A stretch of DNA of 18,437 nucleotides from an uncultured Methanosarcinaceae archaeon (GTDB lineage Archaea; Halobacteriota; Methanosarcinia; Methanosarcinales; Methanosarcinaceae), in NCBI GenBank assembly GCA_963727895.1, contig CAVSHT010000001.1:1-18437 (forward strand), read 5' to 3'. The notes below the pieces were generated by a model. That model saw only the letters and a list, made by a program, of their open reading frames with translations. It was not told the DNA's origin and did not search any database. The position numbers and the translations under genes are program-made. Positions 4,890-12,562 of this stretch are shown here, piece by piece (position 1 is the stretch's first letter; the number at the start of each line of letters is the position of its first letter).

Positions 4890-5636
4890 TCACCCATACA
4901 TTGGGAACTCCTTCTTTACTTCTCCTTTCTGTTCCGTAGTCTGAACATCTTCGGCAAGCCTCTGGAGTTCGGTTTCTATGCGTTCTGCCTGTTCTATAAG
5001 CCTATCTGTACTTATCGAAAGTCCATATAGCTCGTTTAAAACATCAATAACAGCAGAAGCAGCTCTTGGGTCTGGATTCTGGGTTTTGGTAGCACCAAGC
5101 AGACTAAATGCAGGAACTCCACGCAGAAGACATTCAGCCATTACGCTGCCAGAAATTCCGGAGATAGTTCCCATCTGGAAAACCTCAACTTTTTCCTTGA
5201 TTTTATCAAGCATCTCTGGTGTTGTGGCTGCTCCAAAGACTTTATGTCCTCCGTCCATTATGGCAATTCCTGCAATGGAAGCAATTTCTCTTACGTTGAT
5301 AGACTCAGCCCAGTCCACCAGAGCACTACTAACATCGTAAGAGACAGTGTGACTGATTGGAATATCCGAGATTACAACAATCAAGTTATGTTCCGCACTC
5401 TCATAGATCCTAACAGGCATATTTATAAGCCCTTCATACAGCACTGCAATTGAAGGGAAATACCTGGAATCAATAGAGCCAATGTATTCCATTTTTAATT
5501 CTTCTATCATATGCTGGCTTGCAATATTCCCCACAAGCCCAATGCCAGGAAAACCTTCAATCAAAATGGGATTTTTTGACTGTACAGGTTTAGTAATTAT
5601 CTTCACATCATTATTTTCATAGTCTGCATTTGACAA
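4890..5636 (-). CDS. Proteasome assembly chaperone, PAC2 family (PbaA/PbaB-like)
   Basis: LIEGFPGIGLVGNIA, GTISGISG, PDPRAA motifs; C-terminal MYG fits the HbYX motif; TTG start after GAGGTGG. Confidence 0.9.
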   Translation of the reverse strand: MSNADYENNDVKIITKPVQSKNPILIEGFPGIGLVGNIASQHMIEELKMEYIGSIDSRYFPSIAVLYEGLINMPVRIYESAEHNLIVVISDIPISHTVSYDVSSALVDWAESINVREIASIAGIAIMDGGHKVFGAATTPEMLDKIKEKVEVFQMGTISGISGSVMAECLLRGVPAFSLLGATKTQNPDPRAASAVIDVLNELYGLSISTDRLIEQAERIETELQRLAEDVQTTEQKGEVKKEFPMYG

Positions 5637-6034
5637 ATAACCACCTCAGAGAAATACAACCCCTAGGACTATATCTTACCTAATCCTAGATAAACAAATT
5701 TCTCAGCAACCCGGGCCCTACATTGTTTTCGTATGTGTATTAACAAAAAAATATACACTGGACTCAAGTTTCCGACCACTATAACCCTCTTTTTGATAAA
5801 AAAAGAATCTTTTTAATATATATCTTTTCTCATGACTGGAATAAATAATTCAGATGATAATATTATGCAGATTTAGATTTAAATTTAGCTTTTATTCTTA
5901 TTGAAAGCCTATAACAGAAACCTGATATATAAATTATTATAAAATCTGGAAAACCAGATAGAAACTTATAATAAAAAAGGGAAACCGTAACAGAGTTTAT
6001 AGAAAGTAAATCCCAATACAGGAGGACAACATTT

Positions 6035-6622
6035 ATGGGAAAATCTATTCTTTATTTTGACAAAGTAGGGGAAACAAACACTAATGCTGTTATTGAAGCA
6101 GCAGCAAAAAGAGCAGCGGAACTTCAGATCGCCCATATTGTGGTTGCAAGTACCAGCGGAAAAACTGCACTAAAAATGGCAGAAGCAGTAAAAGATACCG
6201 GTATAAAGGTTATTGGAATAAGCCACCAGTACGGGCAGGATAAGAAAGGCGAATGGGAAGTGGAAGAGGAATACAAAAAGGAGCTCGAAGAGCTTGGGGC
6301 GGTAATAACCACTCAATCTCATATATTCTCAGGAGTCGAACGTTCAATCACAAAGAAATTTGGAGGATATTCCAGACTGGAAGTAATTTCTGATACTCTC
6401 AGATCTTTATTTGGAAAAGGATTTAAGGTAGCTATTGAAGTTGCAATTATGGCAGCCGATTCAGGTCATATACCTGTTTCTGATAATACGGAAATTATAG
6501 CCATAGGTGGCACAAGACATGGTGCAGATGTAGCTCTTGTGCTCAGACCAGCCCACAGCGGAGATTTCTTTTCTTTGCAAGTTCGGGAAATTATTGCCAT
6601 GCCACGGGCTAAAGAAGATTAA
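6035..6622 (+). CDS. Standalone pyruvate kinase C-terminal (alpha/beta) domain protein, MTH1675/COG1751-like
   Basis: YFDKVGETNT, HIVVASTSGKTA, SHIFSGVERS, GFKVAIEVAIMAADSG, IAIGGTRHGADVA motifs; AGGAGG RBS. Confidence 0.85.
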   Translation: MGKSILYFDKVGETNTNAVIEAAAKRAAELQIAHIVVASTSGKTALKMAEAVKDTGIKVIGISHQYGQDKKGEWEVEEEYKKELEELGAVITTQSHIFSGVERSITKKFGGYSRLEVISDTLRSLFGKGFKVAIEVAIMAADSGHIPVSDNTEIIAIGGTRHGADVALVLRPAHSGDFFSLQVREIIAMPRAKED

Positions 6623-6690
6623 GGCAACGTAAACCCATAACAAAATAAATTCCCTTGATACAGGTATTTAACTTTCATTTGCAATTAATG

Positions 6691-6730
6691 GGGAAGCTCA
6701 GGTGATTTACTTGAATTACCTTTGCTTCTC
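6691..6730 (+). terminator. Strong hairpin between the PK_C gene and tgtA
   Basis: GGGAAGC..AGGTGATTT-ACTT-GAATTACCT..GCTTCTC; the G-U pairs form on the + strand. Confidence 0.5.
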
Positions 6731-6739
6731 GCTATTTCC

Positions 6740-6754
6740 CAAAGATAAATATAT
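6740..6754 (+). promoter_or_regulatory. Candidate BRE/TATA of tgtA (short-leader or leaderless)
   Basis: CAAAG-ATAAATATA ending ~25 nt before ATG 6779; no SD-like sequence in between. Confidence 0.5.
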
Positions 6755-6778
6755 CTGAGAGACATCTATACCGCCGGC

Positions 6779-8248
6779 ATGTCAGCAATATTCGAAATTC
6801 TCGATAAGGATGCAGGCGGCAGGATCGGACGTCTCAGGACTCCGCATGGGACTGTTGAGACCCCCACCGTTATGCCTGTAATTAATCCAAATATTCAGCT
6901 TATCCCTCCGAGAGAAATGCGAAATTTCGGGGCAGATATTCTGATTACCAATTCCTATATTATTTATCGCAAGGAAGAGTTGAAAAATGTCGCCCTGGAA
7001 AAAGGGTTGCATGGGCTTCTTGGTTTTGACGGACCCATCATGACAGATTCAGGTTCTTTCCAGCTTTCTGTGTATGGGTCTGTGGAAGTTACGAATGAGG
7101 AAATTCTCGGGTTCCAGCAAAAGATAGGAAGTGACATTATTGTCCCGCTGGATATTCCTACGCCCCCCGATGTTCACTACAGAAGGGCTGAAGAAGAACT
7201 TGCGGTCACAGCTGAACGTCTAGAAGCTGCCCGTAAGTTTATCCAAGGAGAGCAACTTCTTGCAGGGCCTGTTCAGGGCTCGACTTATCCTGAACTGAGG
7301 GAAAAAGCTGCTTCTCATCTAAAAGATCTTAATTTTGAGGTTTATCCCCTTGGAGCAGTTGTCCCTCTCATGGAAACCTATCGCTACGCAGAACTTGTTG
7401 ACGTGATTGCAGCAGCCAAAAAAGGGCTTTCTCCATCTTCTCCAGTTCATCTTTTTGGAGCTGGGCACCCGATGATGTTTGCTCTTGCAGTAGCTCTGGG
7501 CTGTGACCTTTTTGATTCGGCAGCTTATGCTCTTTATGCCAAGGACGGGCGCTATATTGCTGTAAACGGGACTTATCATGTTGAAAAACTAAATTATCTA
7601 CCCTGCTCCTGTCCGATCTGTTCAAAGTACACAGCAGAAAAATTGAAAAAGGCCGCTAATAGGGACGAACTTCTTGGAAGGCACAATCTATATGCGACTT
7701 TTGCTGAGATTCGGCTTATCAAGCAATGTATAAAAGATGGTAAATTACTTGAGCTTGTGGAACAGCGTTGCCGTGCTCACCCAAAACTTCTTGATGGGTT
7801 GAAAAAACTTTATACTCATTCTCCCTGGCTTGAGACGCTTGATCCGGCTACAAAAGGTACTTATTTTTACTGTGGACCAGAATCTTCTTCCCGTCCAGAA
7901 GTCTTGCGTTTTGAAAAACGGCTGGATAGATTTAGCCTTCAAGGCTCGGTGATCATTCGTACAGGCCCGGTAAAAGGAGAAAAAGATTACGATCAGATTC
8001 TCATTTTCAAGGCGCCTTTTGGAGCATTTCCTGCTGAAATGGAAGAAGTGTATCCTTTCAATGCGGAAGTCCCGAAATTTCCGGATTACGAATCACTCAA
8101 TACAGCCCTTTCAAATACTCTTAAACTTATGGATCTTAATCCGGAAGCTGAATATACTTTTGTTTGTGAAAAGGAATTCAGTCATCCTCTAATTGAAGAA
8201 ATCGGAAAAAGAGCAAAATTGGTATACAGAGAAAACTGGAATAAATAA
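6779..8248 (+). CDS. tgtA: tRNA-guanine(15) transglycosylase (archaeosine TGT), short form without PUA domain
   Basis: GRIGRLRTPHGTVETPTVMPV, catalytic MTDSGSFQ, PVHLFGAGHP, GCDLFDSAAY, Zn site CSCPIC...HNL; 489 aa. Confidence 0.95.
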   Translation: MSAIFEILDKDAGGRIGRLRTPHGTVETPTVMPVINPNIQLIPPREMRNFGADILITNSYIIYRKEELKNVALEKGLHGLLGFDGPIMTDSGSFQLSVYGSVEVTNEEILGFQQKIGSDIIVPLDIPTPPDVHYRRAEEELAVTAERLEAARKFIQGEQLLAGPVQGSTYPELREKAASHLKDLNFEVYPLGAVVPLMETYRYAELVDVIAAAKKGLSPSSPVHLFGAGHPMMFALAVALGCDLFDSAAYALYAKDGRYIAVNGTYHVEKLNYLPCSCPICSKYTAEKLKKAANRDELLGRHNLYATFAEIRLIKQCIKDGKLLELVEQRCRAHPKLLDGLKKLYTHSPWLETLDPATKGTYFYCGPESSSRPEVLRFEKRLDRFSLQGSVIIRTGPVKGEKDYDQILIFKAPFGAFPAEMEEVYPFNAEVPKFPDYESLNTALSNTLKLMDLNPEAEYTFVCEKEFSHPLIEEIGKRAKLVYRENWNK

Positions 8249-8286: not shown

Positions 8287-8424
8287 TAAGTTCTTCATAT
8301 CTTAAATAATCAAAACTTACACAATCAGAACTTGCCTCAAAAAATATAAAAAGAAAACTTTTTTGAAGTGCAAACCTTTAAAGTTACCTGCAAAGAACCC
8401 TCTAAATAGGGAAAGAGCTTAAGT

Positions 8425-8438
8425 GGAAAGTTTATACA
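8425..8438 (+). promoter_or_regulatory. BRE/TATA of the UbiA-reductase-radical SAM operon
   Basis: GGAAAG-TTTATACA, ~60 nt upstream of the start. Confidence 0.55.
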
Positions 8439-8497
8439 AAGACTTTCAAGTTCATACAGAAATTTTCGTACAAACTAGAAAAGTATAGGTGAAACTA

Positions 8498-9439
8498 GTG
8501 TCCCTTACAGCAAGAATCGGTGAACTCAGTCCTTATCTGCGGCTGCTGAGACCCGAACTTTACTACATGGACCTTACCCTACCTGCCTCAAGTGCAATCC
8601 TTGCTTCCTATTTGGCAACAGGAAGGCTTCCTGAATTTCTTCCTTTCTTGATCGCGGTAATAGGTGGCTTTGCAGCCATTACAAGTTCATACGTTTTCAA
8701 CGATTGCTGTGATATAGATATAGATACAATCAACTTGCCTGGTCGCCCCCTTCCCTCTTCTAAATTATCAAAGAACTCTGCGCTTACTTATTGTGTATTT
8801 TTATTACTAATCGCGGGGACAGCTGCTGCTTACCTGAACCCTGAGTCTCTTGTAACTCTTATTATTGCGGCTGGAACCATCACCATTTACTCAATCTTTG
8901 CAAAGAGAAACACTTTTCTCAGCTTCTTGCCAGTAGGTATCTCTTACGGCTTAGTGCCTATTGGTATCTGGCTTGCTTTTGACCCTGCAGGAATCCTGAA
9001 AGGTAGTGATGGAGTTATTCTCCCTTTGCCAGCTATTTGCTTTGGGCTAATGATATGCGTTACGGACTGGGCTTTTACCCTTGGAGGAGTTTCCAGAGAT
9101 GTGGAAGGAGACAGAATGAAGGGTGCTCCAACAATGCCTGTAACGTTTGGAATCCCATTTACTGCCAAATTCGTTACATTCTGGTGGATTGTTGGAGTCT
9201 TAGCTTCATTAATTATAGGCTGGTCAGCTCGCCTTGGACCTGTATACTTTGCAGGAGCCATGGTGTCAGGACTCTGGATGCTTAATCAATGTCTTGATTT
9301 TATCAAACATCCTACCCCCGAAAGGGGTGGTAAGCTCTTTCTTAATGGTTCAAATTATAGAGCGATTATGTTTGGATCTATGATTCTTGATGTAATCCTG
9401 TGTATTTATGCAGGAGGCTATACTTCCATTTTCTGGTAA
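8498..9439 (+). CDS. UbiA-family prenyltransferase (membrane protein)
   Basis: First Asp-rich motif NDCCDIDID followed by NLPGRPLPS; second motif RDVEGDRMKG; many hydrophobic helices. GTG 8498 follows AGGTGA (8487-8492); the track starts at 8489. Confidence 0.92.
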   Translation: MSLTARIGELSPYLRLLRPELYYMDLTLPASSAILASYLATGRLPEFLPFLIAVIGGFAAITSSYVFNDCCDIDIDTINLPGRPLPSSKLSKNSALTYCVFLLLIAGTAAAYLNPESLVTLIIAAGTITIYSIFAKRNTFLSFLPVGISYGLVPIGIWLAFDPAGILKGSDGVILPLPAICFGLMICVTDWAFTLGGVSRDVEGDRMKGAPTMPVTFGIPFTAKFVTFWWIVGVLASLIIGWSARLGPVYFAGAMVSGLWMLNQCLDFIKHPTPERGGKLFLNGSNYRAIMFGSMILDVILCIYAGGYTSIFW

Positions 9440-9454
9440 AACAGGTAGAGAAAA

Positions 9455-10612
9455 ATGGATGCGGATATTATTGTAATAGGGGCATCTCCTGCAGGACTAA
9501 TGGCTGCAAGGAATGCCTGTGAAAAAGGTGCAGAAGTCCTTTTACTGGAAAAAAAAGAAGAGATCGGGAATCCTCCTCATCCTGCAAACTCCTTTTTTAA
9601 AGGAATGTTAGATAAATGCGGGGAAAAGGTGGACCCTTCTTATGTTGTGCATTACCTGAAAGGCATGAAGATTATTTCCCCTTCAGGAAGGACGGTTGAG
9701 GTTGAAACGCCTGGATATGCTATAGATAAGACCAAATTCGACAAGTTTTATGCGAATAAGGTAATGAAAACTGGTGTTGATCTTTGGAAAGGAGTAAATG
9801 TACAGAATATTCACAGGGAAGGAAGAAATTTTACTGTTAATACTTCTGCTGGGGTATTCACTTCAAAACTGGTAATTATTTCAGATGGCATAAATTCAAA
9901 AATGGCTTCCCTTCTGGGTCTGAAGACAATGAAGCATCCTGAAGATATTGCCTGGGGAATTGAACTGGACATCAAGAGTCCTGGACTTGGGAAACCTGAG
10001 ATGTTTGAGTATTATGTAGGAAATCATGCTCCAGGCTGGAAAACCACATATTCTCCAAGAGGGGGCGACAATGCTGCAATTGGAGCTTATGTGAGGCGAT
10101 GTGGAACCGATGCAACGCCTTACCTGAATGCCTGGGTTGAATATTTTAAAAAACTTAAAGGGCTTGAAGAGTTTGAGGTTGTAAGAAAACTTTCAGGTGG
10201 AGACCCTATAGTGACAATTCCAAATGAGTACGTAACAGACGGAATAATGGTCACTGGAGGGGCAGCAGGTCAGTCCGGAATAGGCTATGCAATGAGATCG
10301 GGACAAATCTGTGGAGATGTTGCTGCAGATGCCATAAGAAAAGGAGATGTCTCTAAATCTTCCCTGTTAGAGTATCGAAAGATCTGGGAAAAAGAATTTA
10401 TGGCTGAACACTACCTGGGGCGAATAGGGCTTGAAACTCTCCGAAAAATGACGGATAAGGAAATCGATGAGATGACCAGGGTTTTTGAAAATGAAGACCT
10501 TTCATTTATTCATGGAAGTTCAGTTCAGCAGGCTATGCAGGTTTTTGCGTTCATGCTAAAGAAAAAACCCTCTGCAATTTTAAAGTGCAGTGCACTTTTC
10601 AGGAACAAGTGA
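9455..10612 (+). CDS. Geranylgeranyl-reductase-like FAD-dependent oxidoreductase (atypical motifs)
   Basis: DIIVIGASPAGLMAA...LLEKKEEIG dinucleotide fold, GYAIDKTKFDK, IISDGINS, GYAMRSGQICG; overall GGR-family layout and size (385 aa). Confidence 0.85.
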   Translation: MDADIIVIGASPAGLMAARNACEKGAEVLLLEKKEEIGNPPHPANSFFKGMLDKCGEKVDPSYVVHYLKGMKIISPSGRTVEVETPGYAIDKTKFDKFYANKVMKTGVDLWKGVNVQNIHREGRNFTVNTSAGVFTSKLVIISDGINSKMASLLGLKTMKHPEDIAWGIELDIKSPGLGKPEMFEYYVGNHAPGWKTTYSPRGGDNAAIGAYVRRCGTDATPYLNAWVEYFKKLKGLEEFEVVRKLSGGDPIVTIPNEYVTDGIMVTGGAAGQSGIGYAMRSGQICGDVAADAIRKGDVSKSSLLEYRKIWEKEFMAEHYLGRIGLETLRKMTDKEIDEMTRVFENEDLSFIHGSSVQQAMQVFAFMLKKKPSAILKCSALFRNK

Positions 10613-10630
10613 AACTTAGGAACAAGTGAA
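10601..10630 (+). repeat. 13-bp direct repeat spanning the reductase stop codon
   Basis: AGGAACAAGTGAA at 10601-10613 and 10618-10630. Confidence 0.85.
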
Positions 10631-10672
10631 CTGAAATTTAAAAAAGAACACCGATAAGGACGCTATTATCAG

Positions 10673-11833
10673 ATGTCAGGCAAAGGACAAAAGATGCAAT
10701 ACGACTTCCATAAAAGCCCTTTTCTCAGAGTTTATGCTGAAATTATAGATGGACGTATGAAGATGAAATCCAGTGGGGCTGCTTCCATCCTTATGAGAAA
10801 AACTCTCGAGAAAAACCTTTCACTTTTTGAAGGCGAAAAACCTGCAAAAATCGAGGCTGATATACTCATCTGTTCTACCTGGATGCCACCAGTACCAAGC
10901 CAGGGTTTTAACCGCCTGGTAAAAAGTCAGCTTTTGTCCAGTATGGGAAAAATGATTCCTGACCAGGTGACTATATCTATTACTGAAGAATGTCCTAATA
11001 ACTGTATTCACTGTGCTTTGCCTGATACGAAAAATCGGAAAAAACTTTCTCCTGAAATCATAAAATCTACGATTGATCAGGTGCTTGAGATGGGCACGAC
11101 CTTTGTGATTTTTGATGGGGGGGAACCACTTACTTATTCAGGCTTAGAAGATCTTATTACATATGTGAATCCTGAAAAAGCCATTGCAGGTATGTTCACT
11201 TCAGGTGTAGGATTGTCTGAAGAACGAGCCAGAAGATTGAAAGAAGCGGGCCTTTATTCTCTTACTGTCAGCTTTGACAGCGCATACGAATATAAACATG
11301 ACTATGTAAGGGGCAGGAAAGGAGTGTTTAAAAGCGCGGTTGAAGCTGTCAAAAATGGAATTCAGGCAGGTCTGCTTGTAAATATCTATGTAGTTCTTTC
11401 CAGAGACAACGTAAACGAGCTCGAAGAATTATATGCGCTTGCATCGGAACTTGGGGTCCATGAACTCTCTTTTTATGAAATAGTTCCCACTGGCAGGTGG
11501 ATGGATCATGCTTCTGAAATCCTGACTCCAAAGGACCTGAAAAAATTTGATAATTTCGTATCAAGAGCCAGGGAGAAAAAAGGTCCCAGAGTATTTCCTA
11601 TCCCGCAAGTCATGAAAACCACAGGCTGCATGGCAGGCAGGAAGTGGCTTCATATTACTCCAGAAGGAAATATTCTTCCCTGCGCCTGTATCCCTATTTT
11701 CTATGGAAATGTCCATAGAGATAGGATAAAAGATGTCTGGAAAAAGATCAGAGAGGACCCTGCATATAATGCAAAGTGCTGCCTTATGAGGAACCCTGAG
11801 TTCAGGGAGAAATACCTTAAACTTTCAGAGTAA
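10673..11833 (+). CDS. Radical SAM protein with C-terminal SPASM/Twitch-like domain
   Basis: CPNNCIHC (CxxxCxxC), GGEP motif, HDYVRG; GCMAGRKWLHITPEGNILPCAC...GNV...CCLMR. Start may be ATG 10694. Confidence 0.92.
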   Translation: MSGKGQKMQYDFHKSPFLRVYAEIIDGRMKMKSSGAASILMRKTLEKNLSLFEGEKPAKIEADILICSTWMPPVPSQGFNRLVKSQLLSSMGKMIPDQVTISITEECPNNCIHCALPDTKNRKKLSPEIIKSTIDQVLEMGTTFVIFDGGEPLTYSGLEDLITYVNPEKAIAGMFTSGVGLSEERARRLKEAGLYSLTVSFDSAYEYKHDYVRGRKGVFKSAVEAVKNGIQAGLLVNIYVVLSRDNVNELEELYALASELGVHELSFYEIVPTGRWMDHASEILTPKDLKKFDNFVSRAREKKGPRVFPIPQVMKTTGCMAGRKWLHITPEGNILPCACIPIFYGNVHRDRIKDVWKKIREDPAYNAKCCLMRNPEFREKYLKLSE

Positions 11834-11953
11834 ACTGGGACCAATTATTAAATGAGTCTCTCTTGAAATTCAAATTATTTCTACATTATTTATATAAACA
11901 GAGTTGCGAATGAATTAGCAAAGCTTATATTATATTTCTTATTAGGCAAAGAT

Positions 11954-12562
11954 ATGCCTGAAAAATTTGATAGAAAGCAAGTTGAAATAAGTTTCAGAAA
12001 ATTTAAGGATTACTCGGACGATGTTGTTTCTGCCAACAATATTTTATTTCATACAAAATTTAATATATTTATTGATCATTGTGAAAATGATCCAGTAATG
12101 TCCTTTATTTGCAAGCAGCTAAAAAATATAGATATTAACTCTGATGAGTGGTTGAGAAAAGGTCAGAGTACAGGTGGATCAATGGTAGGAAGCTGCCAGT
12201 TTGATTTACCTGTAGATGAGAAAACAAGAGACGCTCTCTTATATCAATTGTGCCTAAAAGTAAACAAACACGAAATTGACTTATTTAAGTTTTGCCTTGT
12301 TTTATTTAGATCTAATAGTCTCAATAAGGCTGTATATGATTTCAACGAAGCTATTATAAAACCTATGGTTAGATCAATAGGCTATAAATTAGAAGAAATT
12401 ATGTATGATATTGAGACTGACCTCCGAAACGAGCGATATATTCCTATAACAGTATTTAATGTCTATCAGGATTTTAGTACGACTGTTAATGGTGATATTA
12501 ATACAAAAGGTGACGCAGCTATAGGTGAAGGTGCAAGTATTGAAAAGAAATCAATCATCTGA
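11954..12562 (+). CDS. Hypothetical protein (AT-rich accessory gene) with C-terminal Gly/Asp repeat
   Basis: 202-aa ORF; ~30% GC in the lines I counted; ends VNGDINTKGDAAIGEGASIEKKSII. Confidence 0.75.
   Translation: MPEKFDRKQVEISFRKFKDYSDDVVSANNILFHTKFNIFIDHCENDPVMSFICKQLKNIDINSDEWLRKGQSTGGSMVGSCQFDLPVDEKTRDALLYQLCLKVNKHEIDLFKFCLVLFRSNSLNKAVYDFNEAIIKPMVRSIGYKLEEIMYDIETDLRNERYIPITVFNVYQDFSTTVNGDINTKGDAAIGEGASIEKKSII

Follow-up and report, generated by a model that had tools for sequence, protein, structure and literature searches.

The window analysed here is a stretch of 18,437 nt of DNA, positions 1 to 18,437 of contig CAVSHT010000001.1 in the assembly GCA_963727895.1, which belongs to an uncultured Methanosarcinaceae archaeon (genome G000; 3.67 Mb, 84% complete). 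Downstream of the tgtA gene, the window contains three co-oriented genes on the + strand, encoding a UbiA-superfamily membrane prenyltransferase, a flavoprotein with the fold of geranylgeranyl reductases (GGRs), designated GGR-like, and a radical S-adenosylmethionine (SAM) enzyme, designated rSAM1. The gaps between the three genes amount to 15 nt and 60 nt, as calculated from the list of open reading frames (ORFs), and confirm the arrangement described in the first-pass annotation of the window. The genome is of Methanosarcina, and homologues with 85–95% identity bear labels of that genus. Judging by sequence comparison, these genes (the trio) are strong candidates for supplying the steps still missing from the biosynthesis of methanophenazine (MP), and it is fairly probable that they serve its late steps. 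The basis of this reading is the family membership of the proteins, their separateness from housekeeping paralogues, their co-occurrence, their shifting adjacency and their mutual exclusion with the menaquinone (Mqn) genes. The trio and its upstream neighbour are positioned as follows:

6779–8248, + strand: tgtA, upstream neighbour of the trio.

8489–9439, + strand: UbiA-superfamily membrane prenyltransferase, 316 aa, GTG start (ORF list, PF01040).

9455–10612, + strand: GGR-fold FAD protein of a divergent subfamily, 385 aa (TIGR02032 below the cut-off, match to Ta-GGR 3oz2).

10673–11833, + strand: radical SAM enzyme rSAM1, 386 aa (PF04055, partial PF13186).

The methanogens and ANME-2 methanotrophs behind much of the biological methane turnover use MP as their membrane electron carrier. 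In its side chain, the first isoprene unit is saturated and is the sole saturated unit. The molecule has been described as 2-hydroxyphenazine ether-linked to a C25 chain (PMC3017947). Passages of papers published from 2010 to 2022 still call the pathway unknown and name geranylfarnesyl diphosphate (GFPP) synthase as its sole marker (PMC3017947, PMC6315138, PMC8546582, PMC9478090). According to passages that refer to Ogawa 2010 (PMC3017947, PMC8546582, PMC9478090), no enzyme other than this synthase (MM0789 family; NF040627) has been linked to MP by experiment. Unspecified UbiA genes have been speculated to serve MP synthesis in parts of Holmes 2018 (PMC6315138) and of the Gupta/Nayak preprint (10.1101/2022.07.20.500911); the accessible part of the preprint also describes a UbiA gene down-regulated in an rnf mutant, which may or may not be the window gene. 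The literature check on orthologues suggested in the first-pass annotation yielded no paper assigning the trio, in a search that took in neither supplements nor most subscription journals. The locus tags MA4423–MA4428, which were guessed from mtd = MA4430 and may be wrong, occurred in no paper found.

The UbiA protein matches PF01040 with a score of 132.8 bits (gathering cut-off 34.2). The hallmark of the UbiA superfamily is a pair of Asp-rich motifs, NDxxDxxxD and DxxxD, and the corresponding residues of the window protein, N71-D72-x2-D75-x-D77-x-D79 and D204/D208, vary little or not at all among 14 aligned sequences. The protein reaches no NCBIfam equivalog cut-off. The models of digeranylgeranylglyceryl phosphate (DGGGP) synthase score well below their thresholds (NF009521, 83.8 bits vs. 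296; NF009522, 68.2 vs. 353), and so do those of quinone-type prenyltransferases (TIGR01474, 52.5 bits vs. 275; MqnP models, 39–51 vs. 375–430). There are six UbiA-family matches in the genome, and the paralogue on contig 13 is its DGGGP synthase (NF009521, 400.3 bits); the BLASTP match between this enzyme and the window UbiA is only local, covering 45 aa, and the two proteins are 22% identical in the alignment. A DGGGP synthase would be expected in every archaeon with diether lipids, whereas the orthogroup of the window UbiA had no match in three families belonging to the same order (0/32, 0/2 and 0/1 genomes) or in 30 other families of the phylum (0/320). The window UbiA thus represents an orthogroup distinct from DGGGP synthase, and the possibility raised in the first-pass annotation, that it is the housekeeping enzyme, can be set aside.

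DGGGP synthase (PDB 6m31; NF009521) is nevertheless the best solved relative of the window UbiA (E 1e-12). Both have the membrane UbiA fold with two Asp-rich motifs, and DGGGP synthase catalyses an O-prenylation in which an allylic diphosphate gives a prenyl ether; it is, however, a general archaeal lipid enzyme, whereas the window UbiA is restricted to some lineages of the class and two families outside it. Chemistry of the kind proposed for the window UbiA is known from the Streptomyces enzymes Mpz10 and CnqPT1, UbiA-superfamily membrane proteins that act as prenyltransferases on dihydroxyphenazines, and thus exists in the superfamily. The portions of the sources available describe Mpz10 as a UbiA-type membrane enzyme of hydroxyphenazine prenylation (PMC4044012) and list CnqPT1 among bacterial UbiA O-prenyltransferases (10.1101/2020.07.07.192757). 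These two enzymes, likened to the window UbiA by description and not by sequence, differ from it in belonging to bacterial secondary metabolism, in using short prenyl donors and in having phz genes in the cluster.

The second protein has its best matches among the geranylgeranyl reductases, but its TIGR02032 score of 110.8 bits is under the family cut-off of 158.8. It matches Ta-GGR (3oz2) over residues 4–360 (E 5e-32) and shares with the GGR family the FAD-binding fold, including the GxGxxG motif (VIGASPAG, residues 7–14), of which G9, P12 and G14 are invariant. In canonical GGRs, a conserved cysteine near the flavin and the motif YxWxFP have the roles described in the GGR structure papers. 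The cysteine column is occupied by proline in all six GGR-like orthologues aligned, within the motif PHPAN in five orthologues from the class and SEPAN in that of family f33, which is a looser match overall. The YxWxFP motif is replaced by APGWKxTYSP, so that YIWVFP of Ta-GGR aligns with KTTYSP, and six residues are deleted beside the GGAAGQ motif. Five canonical GGR paralogues are encoded elsewhere in G000 (TIGR02032, 217–292 bits); all of them keep the cysteine and (Y/F)xW(I/V/T)(F/V)P, and none has the changes of the GGR-like protein. The window flavoprotein is therefore a divergent GGR-fold subfamily and not one of the five canonical GGRs, in agreement with the separation from lipid GGRs anticipated earlier. 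The GGR family also includes the menaquinone reductase MenJ, which saturates one isoprene unit of the respiratory quinone tail, the kind of reaction proposed here for the GGR-like protein. The word 'methanophenazine' was not found in the part of a GGR review available (PMC10821996). As a separate observation, a GGR-family frame beside a canonical GGR on contig 9 (G000:C9:301986-302856) is split into parts that cover profile positions 1–182 and 190–297, the second with one in-frame TAG; it could be a pseudogene or contain a pyrrolysine codon.

In MP biosynthesis, GFPP would be the donor of a C25 geranylfarnesyl group, which the UbiA enzyme would attach as an aryl-O-prenyl ether to the hydroxyl of 2-hydroxyphenazine or to that of a precursor; the GGR-fold flavoprotein would then saturate the C2'=C3' bond of the first isoprene unit. 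This order is suggested by prenyltransferase chemistry. UbiA enzymes need an allylic diphosphate, so prenyl transfer would have to precede saturation, which fits a pair consisting of a prenyltransferase and a single-site reductase. The nearest solved relatives of both proteins (6m31 and 3oz2, see above) are lipid enzymes, which would suit another substrate: the trio might tailor a lineage-specific membrane lipid or polyprenol, e.g., an unusual derivative of archaeol, a polyprenyl carrier with partial saturation or a lipid with extended chains. The acceptor of the UbiA enzyme would then be of the glycerol type or a phosphate, and the chains would be modified by the flavoprotein and the radical SAM enzyme. 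Such a role seems unlikely. The genome already has a housekeeping DGGGP synthase and five GGRs, and lipid tailoring leaves unexplained both the exact mutual exclusion with menaquinone genes and the adjacency of a paralogue of rSAM1 to the GFPP synthase gene, which are described below.

The radical SAM assignment of the third protein in the first-pass annotation is upheld by PF04055 (78.9 bits, cut-off 29.5) and by the cluster motif CPNNCIHC at positions 107–114, with C107, C111 and C114 nearly invariant; its assignment to the SPASM type does not hold in full. The SPASM subfamily is characterised by two auxiliary 4Fe-4S clusters and a seven-Cys motif. The PF13186 match of rSAM1 is partial (27.8 bits, residues 319–358, profile positions 1–45 of 67), and the auxiliary-cluster cysteines comprise C319, C338, C340 and C370 in rSAM1 and three residues in its paralogue rSAM2. 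With three to four conserved auxiliary cysteines, the C-terminal domain of rSAM1 is twitch-like and not a full seven-cysteine SPASM domain. The best NCBIfam matches (NirJ2, AhbD and PqqE, about 112–123 bits) miss the equivalog cut-offs of 381–650 by far; the AhbD, NirJ and PqqE equivalogs score 123.3, 121.4 and 112.4 bits against 500, 500 and 381.

The AF2 model of rSAM1, built from 84 sequences, has a pLDDT of 95.6. Its core (residues ~75–378) is nearest to SkfB (6efn; Z 27.2, rmsd 3.4, 288 residues aligned), followed by BlsE (7vob; Z 24.7) and SuiB (Z 24.5), and then by viperin, PqqE, anSME, MoaA and GDGT-MAS (Z 20.9). Like the twitch/SPASM enzymes SkfB, BlsE, SuiB, MoaA, PqqE and AhbD/NirJ, rSAM1 combines the CxxxCxxC motif and a partial TIM barrel with a C-terminal auxiliary-cluster domain; it differs from them in having three to four auxiliary cysteines, an unmatched N-terminal domain and no neighbouring precursor peptide that could be found. 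The N-terminal domain of about 95 aa is common to three groups of radical SAM paralogues (rSAM1, rSAM2 and rSAM3), and its residues S68, W70, P72, P73, P75 and R81 are invariant. It has no Pfam match, PqqD included, even at E ≤ 10. Modelled alone (pLDDT 81), the domain gave a best Z of 4.2 among 48,161 chains and no Foldseek match at E ≤ 0.001.

These results bear on two alternatives. The presence of the tetraether synthase GDGT-MAS among the fold matches could speak for lipid modification, and accessible parts of the literature describe radical SAM enzymes as common in the modification of archaeal lipids; GDGT-MAS, however, is not the best fold match, and the N-terminal domain of rSAM1 differs. 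The best folds belong to the peptide-modifying maturases SkfB, SuiB and CteB, which would suit a trio that makes another, undescribed prenylated redox cofactor beside MP, maybe one that, as in the case of PQQ or mycofactocin, originates from a ribosomal peptide or from an amino acid, with MP supplied by other genes. The occurrence of the gene set in two families where MP is not known, f11 and f33, points the same way. On the other side, none of the 89 small ORFs that flank rSAM or UbiA genes (loci L028–L061) is conserved across genera, the isolated N-terminal domain matches no RRE or other fold (Z ≤ 4.2) and no PqqD, and the link to GFPP synthase points to MP. In addition, Methanosarcina is not known to have a second lipophilic carrier, which counts against this explanation as well, and we consider it quite improbable. 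An RRE or a peptide substrate for rSAM1 was considered and found to be unsupported, though conceivable, as the maturase match covers residues ~75–378 only, leaving the N-terminal domain unmatched, and no small ORF is conserved; a precursor gene farther away is conceivable as well.

A search among 1.84 billion representatives placed 189 clusters in the rSAM1 family at E ≤ 1e-30, and the matches in the protein atlas were unnamed archaeal radical SAM clusters only. A distant relative of 800 aa, P0175, includes part of the N-terminal domain and has it behind an NAD_binding_4 domain of the acyl/carboxylate reductase type, a fusion that could be counted in favour of lipid tailoring. Other fused relatives are several double radical SAM forms and fusions with glycosyltransferase or TusA domains. 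None of the fused proteins is decisive as a clue to the function of rSAM1. In MP biosynthesis, rSAM1 might act without oxygen on the head group or on a precursor of it, and it would probably work together with rSAM2 and rSAM3, both roles being speculative.

The paralogue rSAM2 (G000 contig 12) is 41% identical to rSAM1 (E 1e-103) and rSAM3 (contig 9) is 36% identical (E 3e-59). Each constitutes its own orthogroup with members in ANME-2, family f6, Methanothrix and Methermicoccus. The rSAM2 gene begins 131 nt 3' of a GFPP synthase gene on contig 12, the product of which scores 597.0 bits with NF040627, just below the cut-off of 600, and in Methanothrix genome G007 the GFPP synthase and rSAM2 genes abut. 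The two genes were not found within 1.5 kb of each other in one ANME-2 and one Methermicoccus genome; the f6 rSAM2 locus starts at a contig end, and its 5' side lay outside the comparison. The link to GFPP synthase concerns the paralogue rSAM2 and not the window genes themselves. The GFPP synthase gene of Methanosarcina also lies outside the window, and its enzyme differs from the trio in supplying the precursor of the side chain, not the coupled molecule. Upstream of GFPP synthase, a short patch is conserved at the nucleotide level between L025 (~6394-6582) and the f6 locus L032 (3617-3704), with several frames on both strands; it probably represents an RNA gene, lying as it does in a 2.5-kb stretch (5534-8007) that contains no ORF of at least 90 aa.

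In Methanosarcina-type genera, rSAM3 (L026:9494-10735, + strand, contig 9) lacks every Fe-S cysteine: CxxxCxxC has become a QNSSRYQPG-like sequence and the auxiliary cysteines are gone. This form was observed in the source genome, two other genomes of genus g1 and one of genus g7 (L026, L057, L058, L059), while the cysteines are kept in the orthologues from g5, g6, ANME-2, f6, Methanothrix and Methermicoccus. In every rSAM3 protein, the SAM-binding motif FDGGEP is replaced by FTE(G/N)DP. The cysteine-less ORF is intact and 72–78% identical among these genomes, which suggests a conserved non-catalytic role.

The distribution of the genes was analysed in a class sample of 301 genomes, G000 included, with thresholds of E ≤ 1e-20 for UbiA, E ≤ 1e-40 for GGR-like and radical SAM proteins and E ≤ 1e-10 for MqnA/D (PF02621). 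Family labels were taken from exact protein look-ups and the names of homologues. Family f1 is Methanosarcinaceae (including Methanosarcina, Methanolobus, Methanohalophilus, Methanosalsum and Methanohalobium), f3 is labelled 'ANME-2 cluster archaeon', f6 'Methanosarcinales archaeon' (ANME-2-type), f7 is Methanothrix and f8 Methermicoccus shengliensis. Families f2, f4 and f5 are of the Methanoperedens type, with the labels 'Ca. Methanoperedenaceae/Methanoperedens' for f2 and 'Ca. Methanoperedenaceae archaeon' for f4. The genomes with matches were:

UbiA, 259/301: f1 133/133, f3 12/12, f6 11/12, f7 99/105, f8 3/3, f2 0/32, f4 0/2, f5 0/1.

GGR-like, 252/301: f1 133/133, f3 12/12, f6 12/12, f7 91/105, f8 3/3, f2 0/32, f4 0/2, f5 0/1.

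Radical SAM, 266/301: f1 133/133, f3 12/12, f6 12/12, f7 105/105, f8 3/3, f2 0/32, f4 0/2, f5 0/1.

MqnA/D, 35/301: f1 0/133, f3 0/12, f6 0/12, f7 0/105, f8 0/3, f2 32/32, f4 2/2, f5 1/1.

A genome usually has three radical SAM matches, and one match each for UbiA and GGR-like. The trio and MqnA/D are mutually exclusive, the latter being present in all 35 non-carriers and in 0/266 of the other genomes; MqnA/D was not found in G000, and smaller checks agree. This mutual exclusion places the product of the trio in the niche of a membrane electron carrier. The futalosine (Mqn) pathway also makes a lipophilic membrane electron carrier and likewise uses radical SAM enzymes together with a UbiA-type prenyltransferase, but it has no orthologous genes in common with the trio, and its product is a naphthoquinone and not a phenazine ether. 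The sections of Timmers 2017 available report that the futalosine pathway is encoded by Ca. M. nitroreducens, that no methanophenazines were found in its enrichments and that methanophenazine is likely used by ANME-2a (PMC5244752); in the accessible part of Chadwick 2022, MP use is argued for ANME-2a/b/c and ANME-3 from the phylogeny of Fpo (PMC9012536). The profile fits the MP users, as the trio was not found in the Methanoperedens-type families. The broader expectation of the first-pass annotation, that the genes accompany cytochrome-containing Methanosarcinales, goes too far, since Methanoperedens has cytochromes without the trio.

In a phylum sample of 401 genomes at least 80% complete, UbiA (E ≤ 1e-25) was found in 78 genomes. 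Outside the class it occurs only in f11 (3/4 genomes, 64% identity; one genome labelled 'Methanocellales archaeon') and f33 (2/2, 45–47%; 'Halobacteriota archaeon'). All five of these genomes contain GGR-like and rSAM genes and no Mqn genes, with three rSAM paralogues in f11 and one in f33.

The arrangement of the genes varies with the lineage. The trio is contiguous in most Methanosarcinaceae, with tgtA 5' of it also in loci L038 and L039. In genus g9, GGR-like and rSAM1 stand together and UbiA is located elsewhere; in ANME-2 family f3, UbiA and GGR-like adjoin and rSAM1 is on another contig; in f6 the genes lie separately or at a distance of 3.7 kb. Methermicoccus has UbiA followed directly by rSAM1, and in the Methanothrix thermoacetophila-type genome G007 these two genes lie 7.4 kb apart on the same strand. 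Outside the class, GGR-like adjoins rSAM in f11, and the f33 locus (L037, genome G512) has the order UbiA, rSAM, GGR-like, a ThiC-family radical SAM gene and a second UbiA. This linkage of different gene pairs in different lineages indicates one shared function rather than an inherited gene order.

It could be argued that the three genes are functionally unrelated and that their adjacency beside tgtA is an inherited accident of order. Close genomes do share gene order by descent, and in Methanosarcinaceae the order tgtA–UbiA–GGR-like–rSAM is kept along with unrelated genes, among them serB and mtd. But where the trio is split, different pairs adjoin, even outside the class, and all three genes follow one presence/absence pattern at the family level, which makes a chance association very improbable.

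ThiC relatives make hydroxybenzimidazole in other organisms. The ThiC-family gene of the single f33 genome G512 (L037:12163-14308; PF01964, 567.7 bits), which is accompanied by the divergent second UbiA, is by analogy conceivable as a participant in head-group synthesis.

All computational tests proposed in the first-pass annotation came out in favour of the interpretation of the trio as MP genes. An extension of this interpretation, which we put forward tentatively and regard as possible but doubtful, is a six-gene route to MP that would need neither oxygen nor bacterial phz genes. It would comprise GFPP synthase, UbiA, GGR-like and the three twitch-type radical SAM enzymes with their novel N-terminal domain; the latter would build the hydroxyphenazine head group, with rSAM3 as a non-catalytic partner in Methanosarcina, and MP-like carriers would occur outside Methanosarcinia. 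CofG and CofH, which build the deazaflavin of F420, offer an analogy for such a head group built by radical SAM enzymes. PhzA/B (PF03284) was not found in G000, which is 84% complete, and the canonical head-group route is thus not evident.

Several observations weigh against the assignment of the trio to MP biosynthesis or against its extension. With the canonical cysteine and YxWxFP lost, reductase activity of the GGR-like protein is not assured. Nothing ties rSAM1 specifically to a phenazine, and its head-group role is a guess. The missing PhzA/B is weak evidence because of the incompleteness of the genome, and a PhzF-family gene is present in G000. This family also occurs in 10/14 control genomes; according to a passage of Timmers 2017, PhzF is not in all MP-containing methanogens (PMC5244752). 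The gene set is found in f11 and f33, lineages without any report of MP. Within f7, GGR-like was not found at E ≤ 1e-40 in 14/105 genomes, including G060 (97% complete) and G078 (99%), and UbiA was not found in 6/105 genomes of f7 and 1/12 of f6; the f7 misses include incomplete genomes. Because the carriers are interrelated, no more than a few evolutionary events may account for their clean complementarity with Mqn.

The distribution of GFPP synthase adds a further difficulty. Matches of orthologue grade (best E ≤ 1e-42) are present in f1 (133/133), f6 (9/12), f7 (97/105) and f8 (3/3), whereas f2, f4, f5 and all 12 f3 genomes have matches of paralogue grade only (1e-31 to 1e-37). Each of the f3 genomes (e.g., G067, G095, G173) has a single such match (E 1e-33 to 1e-36), while UbiA, GGR-like and all three radical SAM orthogroups are present, and 8/105 genomes of the Methanothrix family likewise have only a paralogue-grade match. 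The strict six-gene set therefore does not fit f3, where the side chain may come from another prenyl synthase or be of another length.

If the assignment to MP is true, it would reveal new enzyme chemistry: O-prenylation of an aryl acceptor from a C25 donor, a GGR-fold enzyme that lacks the canonical catalytic motifs, and possibly the oxygen-free construction of a phenazine by radical SAM enzymes. A defined gene set makes the MP question directly testable in the genetically tractable Methanosarcina. The trio could also serve as a genomic marker predicting the use of MP or menaquinone in uncultured archaea, a prediction that matters because the redox potentials differ, a section of Timmers 2017 giving −165 mV for MP vs. 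−80 mV for menaquinone (PMC5244752).

RNA-library contigs 90–99% identical to the window (four runs, three studies) together cover all three genes; one of them (9121–9545) crosses the UbiA/GGR-like junction and another (10237–10698) the second spacer. They give a weak indication that the trio is expressed; the contigs do not prove a single transcript, and DNA carry-over is possible. An ORF of 202 aa follows the trio (11954–12562, + strand) with a TATA-like box of its own. It matched no Pfam or NCBIfam family, had no tblastn match in the loci of other genera and was without RNA-contig cover in the four runs, and it was dropped as a member of the cluster on these grounds; it may be a genus-specific gene or no gene at all. 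The putative promoter and terminator signals, judged by eye on the sequence, are:

8359–8364, + strand: T6 run, possible archaeal termination signal of tgtA.

8425–8438, + strand: BRE/TATA-like GGAAAG-TTTATACA.

11889–11897, + strand: TATA-like TTTATATAA ahead of ORF 11954–12562.

The first two signals are contained in the 240-nt spacer between tgtA and UbiA, where GGAAAG-TTTATACA sits 51–60 nt 5' of two candidate starts of the UbiA gene. Judging by the sequence, either GTG 8489 or GTG 8498 is possible as the start; the second, which is in frame, is just 3' of an AGGTGA-like stretch (8487–8492) and would give a protein of 313 aa, the length of many orthologues.

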